From an uncultured archaeon (GTDB lineage: Archaea; Aenigmatarchaeota; Aenigmatarchaeia; CG10238-14; SCSR01): a stretch of 64,000 bases of DNA. Location of the stretch: the NCBI GenBank assembly GCA_964539655.1, contig CAZIJH010000002.1, forward strand, positions 8,741-72,740. The letters run 5' to 3'. How positions within the stretch are numbered: the first letter of the stretch is position 1; every line of letters starts with the position of its first letter. A program made the position numbers and the translations under genes. The notes under the pieces were generated by a model. The model worked only from the letters and a program-made list of their open reading frames with translations. It was not told where the DNA came from and ran no database searches. Below, piece by piece: positions 4,598-35,518 of the stretch.

Positions 4598-4954
4598 TTA
4601 GAATTTCATCAAACTGTCCACAAGCTTCTTCGTCGCTTCCTGTGAGTCTTCGCTCGTAGGCTTTATCAGATCGCTGACCATCCTCTCGATGACTTTTCTC
4701 TTCTCGGCCTCTCCGACAGAAACAATAGCAGTCCAAGGCTCCTTCAATTTTCCGACCATTTCACGAGTCTCGTCGAGCTGCTTTTTCATTTCGATGAGAG
4801 CTGTCCACAACTGAGAAATTTTTACGTCGTCGGCCTGAATGTAGGCTCCCTTGTGCCTCTTTGTCAAATACAAAAGACCCTCGAGAACTTCTCTCGACTC
4901 GTCTGTAAGAAGGTTTTTCCATTCTTCCTTTTCGTCGTCAGAAAGCCAACTCAT
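4598..4954 (-). CDS. Hypothetical protein (118 aa, charged/helical)
   Basis: The ORF was truncated to ATG MSWLSDDEKEEW... (4952-4954). The longer 280-aa reading overlaps the FKBP gene on the opposite strand. Confidence 0.5.
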   Translation of the reverse strand: MSWLSDDEKEEWKNLLTDESREVLEGLLYLTKRHKGAYIQADDVKISQLWTALIEMKKQLDETREMVGKLKEPWTAIVSVGEAEKRKVIERMVSDLIKPTSEDSQEATKKLVDSLMKF

Positions 4955-5041
4955 ACTTCTTTTTGTATGACTTGTTAAATTTAAATCCTTAATTGCAATA
5001 ATGAATTTAACTAAAAAGCAAAAATTTAAAAGTTGAACAAG

Positions 5042-5707
5042 ATGCAGACAGGAGATTTCGTTTCTATTGATTTTGTCGGAAGAGTGAAGGATACAAGGGA
5101 AATTTTCGATCTTACTTTCGAGGACGTTGCCAAAAAAGAAAATATCTACAATCCAAAAATAAAATACGAGCCGATAACGGTAGTCGTCGGCGCAGGTTTC
5201 GTAATTGTCGGACTTGACGACGCGATGAAAGAAATGAAAGTCGGCGAGAGGAAGACGATCGAGGTCGAGCCCGCGAAAGGATTCGGCGAGAGGAAGCCCG
5301 AGCTTGTCAGACTCATTCCACTTTCCTCGTTCAAGGACCAGAACACAGATCCCACTCCGGGAAGCTACGTAAGCATCAACGGAATCAACGGAAGGATTGT
5401 CAGCTCGGGCGGAGGAAGAATCAGTGTTGATTTCAATCACCCTCTTGCGGGCAAGAAACTGGAATACGACATCGAGATCAAGAAACTCGTGACGGACACT
5501 AATGAAAAAGTAAAATCAATTGTCGCTTATTTTGCAAACCTGGAAAAGGACGGCGTCGAGGTCGCGCTGAAAGAGAAGGAAGCCGAAGTGAAAATCAAGG
5601 GGAAGTCCGAGCTGAAAACCGAAGGAAAGAAACTCATCGCGGACAGGATCATCGAATGGGTGAAGGAAGTCGAGAAAGTAAGGTTCGTCGAAGAGTTCGG
5701 CAAATAA
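5042..5707 (+). CDS. FKBP-type peptidyl-prolyl cis-trans isomerase (archaeal long FKBP with IF insert and C-terminal domain)
   Basis: GDFVSIDFVGR..., VVVGAGFVIVGLDDAMKEMKVGE and ISVDFNHPLAGK are FKBP signatures. Confidence 0.8.
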   Translation: MQTGDFVSIDFVGRVKDTREIFDLTFEDVAKKENIYNPKIKYEPITVVVGAGFVIVGLDDAMKEMKVGERKTIEVEPAKGFGERKPELVRLIPLSSFKDQNTDPTPGSYVSINGINGRIVSSGGGRISVDFNHPLAGKKLEYDIEIKKLVTDTNEKVKSIVAYFANLEKDGVEVALKEKEAEVKIKGKSELKTEGKKLIADRIIEWVKEVEKVRFVEEFGK

Positions 5708-5768
5708 TATAAATGAATTTATCTTTGTTTCGCGGAATTAGTTATATTCTGTTCACTGGAATGATTTG

Positions 5769-6863
5769 ATGGGAATAAGACAGCTATCTGAAAAGCAGAC
5801 TGAATCGCGCAACAGTCAGGCCGACGAGGAATTGCGAGAGATTCTCGAGAGAAAGAAGACCCAGATAAAAGTCGTCGGATGCGGCGGAGCCGGTAACAAC
5901 ACGATTACGCGACTGAACCAAGTCGGAATTTTTGGAGCAGAAACAATCGCAGTCAACACCGACGCGCAGGATCTTCTTTACACGGATGCCGACAAAAAAA
6001 TTCTGATCGGGCGTGAGCTGACTTCCGGGCTGGGAGCCGGCGCGGATCCGCAGATCGGAATGGAGGCTGCGAAAGAAAGCAAGGACGAAATAAAGCACGC
6101 GCTGCAGGGTGCGGACATGGTGTTCCTAACATGCGGAATGGGCGGAGGTACCGGTACCGGATCAATTTCAGTTGTTGCTGATGTCGCGAAAAAACTTGGC
6201 GCGCTCACTGTGGCGATTGTGACATTGCCGTTCTCGATGGAAGGAAAGCACAGGGCAGCGAACGCGAGATTCGGGATCGATAATTTGGAGAATGTCGTCG
6301 ACACGATGATAGTTATACCGAACGACAAGCTCGTCGAAATAGTTCCTGATGTCCGGGTCGAAACTGCGTTCAAAGTCGCAGACGAAATTTTAGTAAATGC
6401 AGTTAAAGGGATCGCCGAACTTGTTACCAAACCTGGTCTGGTAAATCTAGATTTTGCAGACGTGCGCGCAGTTATGGGCCACGCAGGAATAGCGTTGATA
6501 GGCATGGGCGAAAGCGACACCGAAAACAGGGCGTTTGAAGCTGTTGAAAAGGCGCTCAACAATCCTCTTCTCAGCATCGACGTCGAAGGAGGTAATGGTG
6601 CGTTGGTGAACGTCATAGGCGGGCCTGATGTGACAGTAAGAGAATCGCAGCAGATAGTCGAGGCAGTTTCGTCAAGGCTTGCGCCCGACGCGAAAGTCAT
6701 ATGGGGAACGCAGATCGACAAATCTCTCGGCGACACCGTCAGGGCGATGCTCGTAATTACCGGAGTGAAAGCTCCCCACATATTCGGCCAGGACAAATCG
6801 TACGGAAAGACCGTCAAGAAAAAAGCGATCGAGGAAGAGCTCGGCGTGGAATTCGTCGAGTGA
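5769..6863 (+). CDS. ftsZ: Cell division GTPase FtsZ
   Basis: The tubulin signature GGGTGTG and the N-terminal [10 protein letters not shown] are present. ATG is at 5769; the ORF-track start at 5766 is TTG. Confidence 0.9.
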
Positions 6864-6909: not shown

Positions 6910-7083
6910 ATGGCTTTGAACATCAAGGAGACATTGGAGAATTACAGAAGGGTTCTTGCAGTCAGCAGGAAGCCAACGATGGATGACTACAAGCTTACCG
7001 CAAAAATCAGCGCGGTCGGCATGATAGCGGTCGGCCTCGTCGGATTCGTAATCTATCTCTTGTCTGTCCTGTTCATAGGCTGA
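6910..7083 (+). CDS. secE: Preprotein translocase subunit SecE (Sec61 gamma), 57 aa
   Basis: Read manually: MALNIKETLENYRRVLAVSRKPTMDDYKLTAKISAVGMIAVGLVGFVIYLLSVLFIG. It has a single C-terminal TM helix and lies directly upstream of Spt5/NusG as in archaea. Confidence 0.75.
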   Translation: MALNIKETLENYRRVLAVSRKPTMDDYKLTAKISAVGMIAVGLVGFVIYLLSVLFIG

Positions 7084-7108: not shown

Positions 7109-7552
7109 ATGATATTCACATTGAAGACAGTCGTGGGAAGAGAGAACATAGTCATCGAGTCGGTAGCATCGAAAGCAAAGACCGAGAACATACAGATCCA
7201 GTCTCTGATACATCCGCAGGAAATAAAGGGATACGTGTTTATCGAAGGCGAACTCAGCGATGTCGAGAGGGCCGCTCAGTCCGTCCCTCACGTGAGAGGA
7301 ATAATAAAGAATCCGATCGAGATGAAGCAGATCCAGAGATTCCTGCAGCCGAAGACGATCGTCATAGAGCTCAATGTTGGAGACGTGGTCGAGGTTGTCG
7401 GTGGACCTTTCAAGGGAGAGAAAGGAAAAGTAACGAGATACGACAAAGTGAAGCGCGAGGTCACGATAGAACTTTTGGAAGTGACAGTTCCGATTCCGGT
7501 CACGGTCTCCGTAGAATTCGTGAGAGTCATCGAAAAAATCGGAGCCAAATAG
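7109..7552 (+). CDS. spt5: Transcription elongation factor Spt5 (NusG homolog), NGN + KOW
   Basis: 147 aa with the KOW motif GDVVEVVGGPFKGEKGKV. It sits in the SecE-Spt5-L11 context. Confidence 0.85.
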   Translation: MIFTLKTVVGRENIVIESVASKAKTENIQIQSLIHPQEIKGYVFIEGELSDVERAAQSVPHVRGIIKNPIEMKQIQRFLQPKTIVIELNVGDVVEVVGGPFKGEKGKVTRYDKVKREVTIELLEVTVPIPVTVSVEFVRVIEKIGAK

Positions 7553-7593
7553 GATTTAAATTGTTGCAAACAATTAATTCGAGATGATTTTAG

Positions 7594-8091
7594 ATGCCGA
7601 GAAAAGAAATTTTGGATTTGCTTATTGAAGGCGGGAAGGCCGCTCCTGGTCCAGCCACTGCTCCGAAATTGTCCGCATTGAAAGTAAACATCGGTGACCT
7701 TTTCAAGAAAGTAAACGACGCGACTAAGGACTACGCCGGAATGCAGGTTCCGGTGAAAGTGGAAATTGACAGGGATACGAAATTATTCGAAGTGAAAGTC
7801 GGAACTCCTCCGGTCTCCAGCCTGATAAAAAAGGAAATGGGAGTCGATCTCGCGAAAATAACCGAGGAAGAAAAAACGAAGGGGAAAGTTTCAGTCGGAG
7901 ATTTGAAAATGGATCAAGTTGTTAAGATTGCCAAAATGAAACAGGGTGCTCTGCTCGCGAAAGATTTGAAAGCGGCCGTGAAACAAATTCTCGGAACAGC
8001 CGCGAGCATGCCGATGACTGTCGAGGGTAGAAAGAGCAAGGAACTGATAAAGGAAGTTGACGAAGGCAAGTGGGATTCCGTAATTAGCTAA
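7594..8091 (+). CDS. rpl11: 50S ribosomal protein L11 (uL11)
   Basis: 165 aa. PGPATAPKLSALKVNIGDLFKKVNDATKDY... is typical of L11. Confidence 0.9.
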   Translation: MPRKEILDLLIEGGKAAPGPATAPKLSALKVNIGDLFKKVNDATKDYAGMQVPVKVEIDRDTKLFEVKVGTPPVSSLIKKEMGVDLAKITEEEKTKGKVSVGDLKMDQVVKIAKMKQGALLAKDLKAAVKQILGTAASMPMTVEGRKSKELIKEVDEGKWDSVIS

Positions 8092-8137
8092 TTCTATGTT
8101 TCCCAATTTTTTAAAATATCAAATTTATAATTGTCTG

Positions 8138-8163
8138 CTAACTTTGGACGAACCAAAAGTTAG
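8138..8163. terminator. Perfect 8-bp inverted repeat CTAACTTT-N10-AAAGTTAG between convergent L11 and Cas2-like genes, preceded by T-rich run
   Basis: Seen directly. The T6 tract at 8107-8112 followed by the hairpin is plausibly a bidirectional terminator. Confidence 0.3.
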
Positions 8164-8366
8164 AATACAATGTTCTCTTCCAAAATATTAGCAATCCCTC
8201 CGCAATTCCTGATCCATATCGCGATTTTCATCAGCTCCTTGATGTTGTCGGACTTCCAGACGGAATTCTGCATCTTCTTCGCATCAATCGATTTCAAAAG
8301 ACGGTTGACCTTAATAGCCAGAATCGACTGGCCTTTCGGGATATCGAATAATAACAAATAGCTCAT
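8160..8366 (-). CDS. Small Cas2/VapD-like protein (68 aa), function unknown
   Basis: N-terminal YLLLFDIPKG (the Cas2 beta-1 VxVxYDI pattern), then KVNRLLKSIDAKKMQNSVWKS resembling the Cas2 KVxKLLxxYGxRVQNSVFEC helix-strand. No CRISPR array nearby. The call is by pattern only. Confidence 0.4.
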   Translation of the reverse strand: MSYLLLFDIPKGQSILAIKVNRLLKSIDAKKMQNSVWKSDNIKELMKIAIWIRNCGGIANILEENIVF

Positions 8367-8421
8367 AAAGTGTTAAAAGTATGACAAATACATATAAAGA
8401 TTTGTATTATTTACAGGTCAA

Positions 8422-9072
8422 TTATTTCTTATAAACTATTTCTCGAATCCTTCTATCATGTTCCAACCTTGAGACTCCCCAATACGTGAGCATCAATTCC
8501 CCGAGCAAATTTTGCCCCAAGAACATGTCTAAAATTTTCGAATCTTTATCGTCGTGGAAATAGCCAACCAGACACGTATACGGATCGTGATTTATTTTAT
8601 CGCCATCGGCGTGCGACGTAATCTTGATCGCTCTTACAGCCGGCATCCAGTTTCTTCTTCCAAATTTGTAAAACATTGCCTGGACATCGCTCGGATCAAA
8701 ACGCCTGCCATAACTCAACAAAATACTTGTTTCCGCGGTTTCCCTGTTAATGGATTGTATCGACGTATCCGAATCCTCGTATCCAAATCCATGAAGCCCG
8801 CTTGTCCAAAATTTTCTCAGATGATTCATGTTATGATGAGACAGACCAAAAGGAATTTTGACACAATACTGCTTGGTCAACTTTGACAAGTTGTTGTAGT
8901 TATTCGGACTGTGTGGAAAGGATTTCGGAAACTGAATGAAATGCGCCTTTATCCCGTGTTTTTCGACAACGTGCTCCTCTTTGCCTCCATCAATTTTCGG
9001 GACATTTATCCAAGCCTTCCGACCATTTTTTTCGTAGGCCCTTTTTTGGGATTCTGCGACCAGCAATGACAT
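8422..9072 (-). CDS. Thg1-like protein (tRNA-His guanylyltransferase / 3'-5' nucleotidyltransferase family), 216 aa
   Basis: Recalled Thg1 motifs were matched by eye. WINVPKIDGGKEEHVVEKHG resembles VVVRLDGRNFHRFAEKHNF. SYGRRFDPSD..AMFYKFGRRNWM resembles AYGQSDEYSFVFKRKTNWF. This is a tentative family assignment. Confidence 0.45.
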   Translation of the reverse strand: MSLLVAESQKRAYEKNGRKAWINVPKIDGGKEEHVVEKHGIKAHFIQFPKSFPHSPNNYNNLSKLTKQYCVKIPFGLSHHNMNHLRKFWTSGLHGFGYEDSDTSIQSINRETAETSILLSYGRRFDPSDVQAMFYKFGRRNWMPAVRAIKITSHADGDKINHDPYTCLVGYFHDDKDSKILDMFLGQNLLGELMLTYWGVSRLEHDRRIREIVYKK

Positions 9073-9159
9073 GATTATCGAATAACAGAGAAACTTTTTA
9101 AAGGTTGAGCTACAACTAGATTTACCCGCAAGTCACTGCTTCGGCAGGAGGGTCGTAAC

Positions 9160-9777
9160 ATGAATGAAAAAATATTGAAAGCCGTGAAGGAACTGAAAGA
9201 GAAATCCGAGAAAAGAAACTTTTCTCAAACTTTTGATTTGATCGTTTCCTTGAAAGATATCGACATGAAGAAGCCCGAGAGCAAGATCAACGAGGACTTC
9301 CCGCTTCCGCACAGCAGGGGAGACGACGCGAAGGTAATAATTTTTTCCGACACTCAAAAGTTTCCTGACGCGGAAGTGATGACCGGAGCCGACATAAATT
9401 CTCTTGCCGCGAACAAAAGGAACGCGAAAAAGATTGCGAGAGACACGGACTTCTTTTTGGCGGAAGCAAAGCTGATGCCTCTGGTCGGTAAGGTTCTCGG
9501 CCAGTCGCTCGGTCCAAGAGGAAAAGTCCCGAAGCTTCTTATCGGAAACATTCCGGACCTGGTGAAAAATTACAGACACGCCGTGAAGCTGAGGACAAAA
9601 GATTCTCCGGTGATACAATGCATGACCGGGAACGACAAGATGCCGGACGAGCAGATCGCGGAAAATATAGAAGCGGTTGTAAACTTTCTGGCGCACAAGC
9701 TTCCGCAAGGCAAGAACAACATCGGAAAGGTCCTGCTCAAAATGACAATGAGCAAGCCTATCAGGGTAGAGGTGTAA
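9160..9777 (+). CDS. rpl1: 50S ribosomal protein L1 (uL1)
   Basis: 205 aa with typical L1 N- and C-terminal regions. Confidence 0.9.
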   Translation: MNEKILKAVKELKEKSEKRNFSQTFDLIVSLKDIDMKKPESKINEDFPLPHSRGDDAKVIIFSDTQKFPDAEVMTGADINSLAANKRNAKKIARDTDFFLAEAKLMPLVGKVLGQSLGPRGKVPKLLIGNIPDLVKNYRHAVKLRTKDSPVIQCMTGNDKMPDEQIAENIEAVVNFLAHKLPQGKNNIGKVLLKMTMSKPIRVEV

Positions 9778-9781
9778 TGAG

Positions 9782-10558
9782 ATGGCGAAAGAACAAAAAA
9801 TAAAGGCGGTCGAGGAACTGAGAAAACTAATCGATTCTTATTCGACAGTCGGAATCATCGACATGAACAAGCTCGGAGCAAAGCAGCTGCAGGAAGTCAA
9901 GAAGGCCCTGCGCAGAAAGGCGAACATAATGATAACAAAGAAAACTATTTTGCTGCGCGCAATAAGATCATCGTCGAGAGAGAAAATCGGCGATCTCGAA
10001 AAACTTGCTCCACTCCAGCCAGCAATTGTGCTGACTAACGAGGATCCGTTCAAATTTTACGCCGTCGCGAGCAAACTGAAATCGCCGACATTCGCGAAGG
10101 AAGGCGACGTTGCGGAGGATGAAATTTTTGTTGCGGCAGGCCCGACAGGATTGATGCCGGGACCAGTCATCAGCGAATTCGCAAAAGTGAAGATACCAGC
10201 CGGTGTCGAGGAAGGAAAAATTTCAGTCAAGAAAGATACAGTAGTTGCAAAAAAAGGCGACAAGATTTCGAAGGATCTCGCGGTCATTTTGAGGAAGCTG
10301 AAGATACAGCCGATCAACGTCGGAATAATAATTTCAGCGGTTTACGAGAAGGGAATGATATACGTGAAGGACACGTTGGACCTTGTAGGGGAAAATTATC
10401 TGAACAAAATCAAGCAGGCTTTCAACGAAGCTTTAAATCTGTCTGTTGCCATAGGTTATCCAACAAAGGAGAACGTGGCTCAACTGTTGGCGAAAGCTTA
10501 CAGGCAGGCACAGGCTGTTGAAAAAATAATAAAACAACCAAGTGGAGGTTCGAATTAA
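9782..10558 (+). CDS. rplP0: 50S ribosomal protein L10 / acidic stalk protein P0 (uL10)
   Basis: 258 aa, MAKEQKIKAVEELRKLIDSY... in L1-P0-P1 order. Confidence 0.85.
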   Translation: MAKEQKIKAVEELRKLIDSYSTVGIIDMNKLGAKQLQEVKKALRRKANIMITKKTILLRAIRSSSREKIGDLEKLAPLQPAIVLTNEDPFKFYAVASKLKSPTFAKEGDVAEDEIFVAAGPTGLMPGPVISEFAKVKIPAGVEEGKISVKKDTVVAKKGDKISKDLAVILRKLKIQPINVGIIISAVYEKGMIYVKDTLDLVGENYLNKIKQAFNEALNLSVAIGYPTKENVAQLLAKAYRQAQAVEKIIKQPSGGSN

Positions 10559-34660: not shown

Positions 34661-35518
34661 TTACGATGCTGATTTCAATCTCCTCCCAAGCCAGATTTCC
34701 AAAATGCCCGCGTTGAAAATCCACGTGTACAAAAGATCGGACAAAAATCCTATTACAAGAATGTCCGCTATGTTGACGAGAAGTTTCGACGAAGACATCA
34801 TTATCACTATGAACATCGTGATCGTTATTGTCGCGATCAGCGTGATTCCCGTCGTGAACGCTTTCTTGTACCTGCTCTTGAATTCTTCCATCGTAGTGCC
34901 GTGTGCAGTTACCTTGCTCGTCAGGACTATGTTTGTGTCAACAGTGTAAGCTATGAGCATGAGAAGACCAGCGAACCCCGCGAGACTTATCCTTATGCCG
35001 ATAAGGCTTGTTATCGCGAGCGTAGTAACGATGTTGGCAAGTATTGCAAAAACTATTCCGAAGCTCGAGACCAGGTTCCTGTAGATAATGAAAATTATTA
35101 TGCTCATCAGGACAAACGCTATGACCAGGATGTAAGTCATCTGCTGAAGAAACATGTTCCCGAGAGACGGCCCGATTGTCTCGATCGAGAATCCGGTCAC
35201 ATTTATCCCGGAAGCCTTGACATAATTGATCAGCTCATTCGAATCGGTTTCCGCGGAAACTTCTATGCCGGCTCCGTATCCAGTCGAAGTCCTGAGCCCA
35301 GAAATGTACACCGATCCGTATTTTTCAGCCAACAATTTTTCCAAATTTACAACATCAATCTGCTTGTCGGACTCTATCGTTACGAGAGTTCCTCCCTTCA
35401 GGTCGACATCCCGTGCTACAAAATCTCCGGTGCTAATGTAGTTCCAGACGAGAACCGACGACGAAAAAAGAAACAGCGCAATCGGAATGAAAATTAAATT
35501 CTTGGTTTTTATTTCCAT
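34661..35518 (-). CDS. secF: Protein-export membrane protein SecF
   Basis: DVDLKGGTLV and a six-TM C-terminal region. It lies upstream of secD. Confidence 0.8.
   Translation of the reverse strand: MEIKTKNLIFIPIALFLFSSSVLVWNYISTGDFVARDVDLKGGTLVTIESDKQIDVVNLEKLLAEKYGSVYISGLRTSTGYGAGIEVSAETDSNELINYVKASGINVTGFSIETIGPSLGNMFLQQMTYILVIAFVLMSIIIFIIYRNLVSSFGIVFAILANIVTTLAITSLIGIRISLAGFAGLLMLIAYTVDTNIVLTSKVTAHGTTMEEFKSRYKKAFTTGITLIATITITMFIVIMMSSSKLLVNIADILVIGFLSDLLYTWIFNAGILEIWLGRRLKSAS

Follow-up and report, generated by a model that had tools for sequence, protein, structure and literature searches.

In a 64,000-nucleotide stretch of DNA from an uncultured archaeon of the Aenigmatarchaeota (contig CAZIJH010000002.1; the whole stretch is called the window below), the genes of ribosomal proteins L11 and L1 are separated by two open reading frames (ORFs), coding for 68 and 216 amino acids (aa). 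We interpret the 68-aa protein as a solitary, minimal Cas2-fold protein, here called mini-Cas2, which belongs to a multi-copy family and has become fixed at the L11-L1 junction, and the 216-aa frame (ORF216) as a young orphan that is no partner of it. To this reading as a whole we give a probability of about 0.7. In the proposed scheme, the 68-aa gene would stem from a large multi-copy family of DPANN archaea (Aenigmarchaeota) and would encode the ferredoxin core of the Cas2 superfamily and nothing else. One orthologous lineage would have become fixed between L11 and L1, to be inherited vertically from then on under purifying selection similar to that acting on its ribosomal neighbours. The protein would be small, probably homodimeric and nucleic acid-binding, and would act alone, with a candidate site for metal-dependent RNA cleavage or binding made of Phe7-Asp8, where strand 1 ends, of Lys31/Gln33 and of Ser35-Val36-Trp37.

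The 68-aa frame occupies positions 8160-8366 of the window on the minus strand and, to judge by the way its codons change, is a real gene under strong purifying selection. Differences among its orthologues affect 48-74% of third codon positions and 6-15% of second positions, 17 synonymous and 3 non-synonymous changes are found between strains, and its codon usage is typical of the genome (log-likelihood ratio 0.34). The AlphaFold2 (AF2) model of the protein has a predicted local distance difference test score (pLDDT) of 95.6, and its elements run from a strand (residues 3-8) through a helix (14-26), two strands (30-33 and 36-39) and a second helix (42-54) to a last strand (58-63). When this model was compared with the PDB by Foldseek, ranks 1 to 29 were all taken by Cas2 proteins, led by 3exc (E 6.6e-4, TM-score 0.75) and including 2ivy and Cas1-Cas2 complexes; VapD first appeared at rank 37 (E 0.04). 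Single-sequence profile matches are weak and confined to the N-terminal half of the protein (PADLOC Cas2, E 5e-4; TIGR01573, 16.6 bits against a cut-off of 24.5), and the Pfam scan of the window's own protein gave no match. With 119 family members, the Pfam matches were all weak or below threshold: PaaX_M in 53 (best E 1.5e-4), CRISPR_Cas2 (PF09827) in 50 (best E 3.6e-5) and ChrB_N in 17.

The motifs point in the same direction as the fold. Across the 119 sequences, F7, D8, Q33, S35 and W37 either never vary or are kept in at least 90% of cases; the invariance of K31 and V36 is confined to the close clade found between L11 and L1. The groups F7-D8, K31/Q33 and S35-V36-W37 align with the Cas2 motifs Tyr/Asp, RVQ and SVF. 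In the Cas2 protein SSO1404, Tyr9, Asp10, Arg31 and Phe37 are required for RNase activity (PMC9510766), and the motif residues of mini-Cas2 correspond to these. Cas2 proteins carry an additional C-terminal region (PMC9510766, from which the motif definitions are also taken), while the 68-aa protein stops at residue 68, directly past strand 4, and has no C-terminal beta5 strand. An earlier reading of this DNA, made from the sequence only, had called the protein Cas2-like; the peptide strings that it quoted are found in both ORFs, and the call is borne out by the AF2 model, the Foldseek ranking and the weak profile matches. The 68-aa protein is Cas2-like in fold and motifs and is not a member of CRISPR Cas2.

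Nine loci have mini-Cas2 at the L11-L1 junction, always in one orientation, towards L11 (convergent) and away from L1 (divergent). A neighbour-joining tree puts the nine copies into one clade, and three relatives inside this clade have moved elsewhere, for example beside eIF6-L31e. When the same loci are compared with the window, mini-Cas2 proteins are 57-78% identical, L1 proteins 52-66% and L11 proteins 63-76%. These identities fit a long vertical inheritance at this junction, with a constraint comparable to that of ribosomal proteins. The sequence-only reading had described both genes together as a two-gene insertion, which is imprecise. ORF216 alone is strain-specific; the 68-aa gene is an old resident of the junction across the whole clade.

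What adjoins mini-Cas2 on its L1 side is by comparison highly variable. The distance from the L1 start to the mini-Cas2 start is 66-155 bp and free of ORFs in five relatives (L005, L006, L007, L014 and L018), and at some of the L11-L1 loci mini-Cas2 is flanked by ribosomal genes only. Locus L003 has in the same slot a 323-aa orphan unrelated to ORF216 (BLASTP E=11), L019 has two orphans of 131 and 89 aa, and L008 has about 1.5 kb that include other ORFs and a gene with an ArsR-type helix-turn-helix (HTH; HTH_5 with 26 bits, cut-off 22), which shares its strand with the mini-Cas2 gene and abuts it. A functional pairing of the 216-aa and 68-aa proteins, as envisaged in the sequence-only reading, finds no counterpart in these relatives, where the slot is empty or filled with unrelated genes, the outcome that the same reading had named as speaking against it; across the family, too, the 165 flanking genes fall into 96 families. 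We read the pairing as incidental and see no functional module in the two genes. In L003, the 13-nt hairpin sequence CTGCCGAAGCAGT occurs twice, beside L1 and between the 323-aa orphan and the mini-Cas2 gene (7540-7570 and 8655-8675); this direct repeat on either side of the inserted ORF points to an insertion of duplication type at the L1 leader. The record of L008 (DAIDAX010000011.1) bears the name "bacterium isolate clean1851"; yet it has the archaeal arrangement FtsZ-SecE-Spt5-L11-mini-Cas2-L1, its proteins being 52-75% identical to those of the window, and so probably is an archaeal metagenome-assembled genome under a wrong label.

Beyond this junction, a profile search showed the mini-Cas2 family to comprise at least 160 proteins, nearly all of 63-88 aa. 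The organism names attached to them are only Candidatus Aenigmarchaeota or Aenigmatarchaeota, an assignment that is taken from the more distant members and not from the closest relatives, and some members were labelled "Cas2" by the Joint Genome Institute (JGI). A scan of metagenomes, for which 24 closer sequences were used as the 119-sequence alignment was too diverse for search patterns, detected 125 family loci; contig Ga0315298_1000011 (418.8 kb) has six of the copies and another contig, of 150 kb, has three. In the window the family hidden Markov model found one copy only, and no relatives of the family were found in IMG/VR. No Pfam family occurs more than twice among the flanking genes, which include those for L15, SecY, adenylate kinase, SUI1, eIF6/L31e, deoxyhypusine synthase, TsaD, SMC, transporters and metabolic enzymes. 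With flanking genes this diverse, there is no conserved partner, antitoxin or cas gene. CRISPR arrays are absent from the window, as had been stated before, and from 497 kb of flanks of 97 family loci. The 25 listed neighbour Pfam families, of 117 matched, include no Cas family, nor do the 25 that are listed of the window's 42 PADLOC families. The mini-Cas2 copies sit singly, scattered among housekeeping genes and independently of CRISPR. Paralogues were also seen in or next to translation clusters: between L15 and SecY on one strand (L040, 2494-4703), next to adenylate kinase (L023/L027-L029), next to SUI1 (L047), and convergent with eIF6-L31e in the exosome superoperon (L101, 6001-6866).

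For the second ORF in the gap, at 8422-9072 on the minus strand, the sequence-only reading had proposed a Thg1-like nucleotidyltransferase. Profile searches with ORF216 against Pfam, NCBIfam and PADLOC at E<=1 returned no Thg1 model and no credible family match, the sole Pfam line being UTP6_C at E 0.053. A word-indexed search of 5.8 billion proteins gave no match. Exhaustive phmmer against 1.84 billion representatives retrieved one 58-aa truncated variant from a sister strain and two repetitive proteins. The latter, P0122 and P0123, are large, apparently eukaryote-like proteins with six to seven matching stretches to ORF216, and were rejected as spurious on account of their repeats, CBM_10 domains and low complexity. 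The PDB sequence search yielded nothing significant. A match there to TM1631 (E 0.39), and a DUF72 gene beside the family member at L073, led us to consider ORF216 as a degraded DUF72 protein; this was discarded, as BLASTP against the L073 DUF72 protein was blank and the Pfam DUF72 model did not match. No relatives were found in IMG/VR or among GenBank phages, the only exact copies are on two short contigs that belong to the same organism, and the single-sequence AF2 model has a mean pLDDT of 34.8, too low for fold comparison. With no profile match, no homologues and no confident model, a Thg1 identity of ORF216 is not supported by its sequence. The tRNA genes of the window are those of tRNA-Ala and tRNA-Pro only.

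Compositionally, ORF216 is ordinary in GC content (0.42) and in GC at third codon positions (GC3, 0.49), both within about one standard deviation (SD) of the window genes. Its codon score is low: 0.09 per codon, third-lowest of 55 and about 2 SD below the window genes (0.36 +/- 0.14). Two further ORFs score below ORF216, 4598-5440 (minus strand, 0.00) and 34901-35497 (plus strand, -0.37), the lowest in the window, and may be spurious or foreign. Two sister strains show what becomes of the frame over a short distance. L098 has the L1 gene, the intergenic region and ORF216 codons 1-46 in common with the window, with seven synonymous changes and one non-synonymous change; after codon 49 its homologue runs into a C-terminal fragment of a type I restriction enzyme R subunit (828-1136; T1RH-like_C positions 118-219, E 2e-39). 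L100 retains ORF216 codons 26-73 and the last 45 codons and differs in the middle, where its scaffold contains a run of Ns, so that a chimeric assembly is possible. With a middle or a 3' part exchanged from one sister strain to the next, ORF216 is unstable, and the best reading of it is that of a young orphan, peculiar to this strain, in a hypervariable slot.

One may ask whether ORF216 is a gene at all. It could be an accidental or decaying frame in junk DNA between two divergent promoters, and we regard this as the most serious of the alternatives, although it is less probable than a young gene. The codon score, the lack of homologues, the pLDDT of 35, the cut after codon 49 in L098 and the other middle in L100 all agree with a frame without function. 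On the other hand, 216 open codons make a long frame at about 42% GC, the codon score of this frame is far higher than those of the other five, and the segments common to the sister strains have an excess of synonymous changes. ORF216 may on this evidence be expressed and weakly constrained.

The genes around the junction follow one another on the plus strand, by the ORF listing and Pfam, as FtsZ (5766-6863), SecE (6910-7083), Spt5 (7109-7552), L11 (7594-8091; Ribosomal_L11_N 1.9e-17, Ribosomal_L11 2.4e-17), L1 (9160-9777; Ribosomal_L1 9.2e-42), P0 (9782-10558) and P1 (10559-10852). The gap between L11 and L1 holds two long ORFs only, both on the minus strand and 55 bp apart, and the separation of the two ribosomal genes by two opposite-strand genes, reported in the sequence-only reading, agrees with these coordinates and with Pfam. 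An inverted repeat at 8130-8171, with 16-nt arms that are 88% complementary according to a repeat search, takes in the 3' end of the mini-Cas2 gene with its stop codon and is located in the 68-bp spacer to the convergent L11 gene; it is possibly a terminator common to both genes. In relatives, intein or LAGLIDADG insertions were seen in FtsZ (L005, 1368-3560) and ribonucleotide reductase (L012, 1-1147), and one ORF of the window has a PADLOC homing-endonuclease match (1.6e-82).

ORF216 lies in the slot between the promoter and leader region of L1 and the promoter region of mini-Cas2. About 29 nt before the mini-Cas2 ATG is the TATA-like TTTATAT, part of the element ATACAAATCTTTATATGT at 8390-8407 (minus strand), whose 18 nt are identical to those at the same position in the insert-free L006, and which we take to be a promoter by its agreement with the archaeal TATA consensus. 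On the other side, an alignment of nine L1 upstream regions located the TATA-like element TTTTTAAAGG at 9095-9104. The L1 ATG follows about 60 nt downstream of it, and about 25 nt separate it from the ATG of ORF216, which it precedes on the opposite strand. The element is likely to be the L1 promoter, and it is possibly used divergently. It is followed in the L1 5'-leader by the hairpin CUGC-UUCG-GCAG and then GGAGGG (9136-9152, plus strand), found once in the window against 0.04 expected. The wider pattern, (A)CCCG-N7-CUGC-loop-GCAG-GAGGG, stands right before the start codon (9122-9159, plus strand), and the 4-bp stem is invariant in nine related loci (the window, L003, L005, L006, L007, L014, L018, L019 and L098), with the loops UUCG, CUCG, CUAG and CUUGU. 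The Rfam scan of 7500-9900 gave no match. Autoregulatory mRNA sites for L1 are known from Methanococcus, and by analogy the leader hairpin may be such a site. In the window, the L1-proximal 87 bp retain the TATA-like element and the leader hairpin, and the 55 bp before the mini-Cas2 gene retain the 18-nt element. The insertion has thus left a promoter region intact on either side, and the mini-Cas2 gene probably is still transcribed on its own.

Several points weigh against our reading of the junction and should be set out together. All relatives were collected through the 68-aa gene, so the frequency of uninterrupted L11-L1 junctions lies outside the sample. ORF216 shows hints of constraint, namely the seven synonymous changes to one in codons 1-46 (L098) and ratios of 0.19-0.38 relative to L100, which are based on small counts. 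Four lineages have some same-strand ORF upstream of the mini-Cas2 gene, and a loose link to a fast-changing gene is possible. As for the protein, fold and motifs are the sole pointers to its presumed nuclease or RNA-binding role, some bona fide Cas2 proteins are non-catalytic (PMC9510766), the family matches the non-nuclease PaaX_M as often as Cas2, and the beta5 strand, which serves in Cas2 dimerisation, is missing from mini-Cas2, which makes dimer formation uncertain.

The last points lead to the main rival for the protein itself, in which mini-Cas2 would be a non-catalytic regulatory, ligand-binding or dimerisation module, a free-standing counterpart of the Cas2-like domain that PaaX/ChrB-type regulators carry joined to winged-helix DNA-binding domains, with a DNA-binding partner in trans. 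The profile matches (PaaX_M in 53 of 119 and ChrB_N in 17, against CRISPR_Cas2 in 50) are in keeping with it, as are fusions of about 187 aa from the candidate phyla radiation (CPR), in which an HTH-like and a Cas2-like part are joined and the same FDIP and LQNSVW motifs occur, and the ArsR-family HTH gene that abuts mini-Cas2 in L008. That HTH neighbour is, however, found in one lineage only, no HTH family recurs among 95 representative neighbours, the catalytic-type Asp of Cas2 and the SVF-like motif are nearly invariant, and the structural neighbours are Cas2 proteins. We consider a module of this kind a minority view with perhaps a slightly poorer claim than the non-coding reading of ORF216, and continue to prefer a solitary Cas2-fold protein with a putative nucleic acid-binding or nuclease function.

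It is tempting to go further and speculate that these genes form a DPANN-expanded class of CRISPR-independent minimal Cas2-fold nucleases, with some ten or more paralogues per genome of about 1 Mb, each at a junction of essential genes, ribosomal operons included, which might process neighbouring transcripts at specific sites or be domesticated homing elements, and which could also be close to a free-standing ancestor of Cas2 and the PaaX-type sensor domain. We would bet against this extension and offer it as a speculation.

That mini-Cas2 genes are still selfish, homing-like nuclease genes colonising the junctions of conserved essential genes, with the variable slot as a by-product, is less probable again. 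Multi-copy and solitary genes with a nuclease fold, found at L11-L1, at L15-SecY, after adenylate kinase, after SUI1 and against eIF6-L31e, would be expected of such elements, and the DNA adjoining the L11-L1 copy does vary between strains, in L003 with an inserted ORF bracketed by the 13-nt direct repeat. Against this stand the strong purifying selection, a position kept throughout the clade with an identity that tracks the ribosomal proteins, the codon usage typical of the host genome and the lack of relatives in viral contigs; no terminal repeats were noticed around the mini-Cas2 genes, in flanks that were not searched systematically. Least probable of all, and by our estimate very improbable, is an RNA-repair, surveillance or toxin-antitoxin-like module made of a Cas2/VapD-like toxin and ORF216 as its upstream partner: the two genes share a strand at a distance of 55 bp, Cas2 and VapD have a common fold with VapD a toxin of toxin-antitoxin type (PMC9510766; Foldseek rank 37), and four lineages have a same-strand ORF immediately upstream, but these ORFs are mutually unrelated (216 aa against 323 aa, BLASTP E=11) and absent in five lineages, ORF216 has no Thg1 or other family signal and is truncated or mosaic in sister strains where the small gene is intact, the small gene retains its own promoter-like element, and no neighbour is conserved across the family.

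For annotation, our results remove the combination of Thg1 and Cas2 as a false lead, and the JGI labels "Cas2" in this family should not be taken as evidence of CRISPR-Cas. They further indicate that the L11-L1 junction can hold a stable additional gene together with a fast-changing insertion slot, while the L1 promoter and leader are left undisturbed. What deserves to be kept is that DPANN archaea have a solitary, minimal, multi-copy family with the Cas2 fold and that one of its members is fixed at L11-L1. A tiny protein that comprises the Cas2 core, has multiplied into many solitary copies in archaea with very small genomes and is conserved like ribosomal proteins bears on the roles of the Cas2 fold outside CRISPR adaptation, and the family also bears on the origin of Cas2 and of PaaX-type domains.

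Compared with known systems, the likeness of ORF216 to Thg1 and Thg1-like nucleotidyltransferases (PF04446, PF14413) amounts to short peptide resemblances noticed by eye, with nothing demonstrable behind them, and ORF216 differs in that it matches no profile at E<=1, has no homologues and gave no confident model of its fold. With VapD of the VapXD toxin-antitoxin system, mini-Cas2 shares the Cas2/VapD ribonuclease-type fold (Cas2 and VapD have the same fold; PMC9510766), small size and independence from CRISPR. VapD is nevertheless the weaker structural match (rank 37, E 0.04) and has split helices, and an adjacent antitoxin gene of VapD/VapX type is not conserved, no small partner recurring among the 165 flanking genes in 96 families. 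The PaaX_M and ChrB_N domains (PF20803, PF20229) resemble mini-Cas2 in profile searches as weakly as Cas2 does, and the CPR proteins of about 187 aa, with their HTH-like N-terminus and Cas2-like domain, have the FDIP...R..L...(L)QNSVW motifs in common with it. In contrast to these regulators and fusions, mini-Cas2 is free-standing and has neither a DNA-binding domain nor the PaaX C-terminal domain; no PaaX-type winged-helix or C-terminal fusion was encountered among the listed family members, which have 51-99 aa, mostly 63-88, and correspond to the Cas2-like core only. The closest comparison is with CRISPR Cas2 (PF09827, TIGR01573; SSO8090, 3exc; SSO1404, 2ivy), whose members are the nearest structural matches (TM-score 0.6-0.75) and have, like mini-Cas2, an Asp after an aromatic residue at the end of strand 1. 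In mini-Cas2, K-x-Q and S-V-W take the place of the Cas2 motifs R-V-Q and S-V-F. It differs further in its length of 68 aa, without the C-terminal beta5 region for dimerisation and Cas1 contact, and in scores that stay under the curated cut-offs; and where CRISPR Cas2 would be looked for next to cas1 and an array, neither of which is nearby here, mini-Cas2 is encoded in many paralogous copies per genome, amid housekeeping genes.

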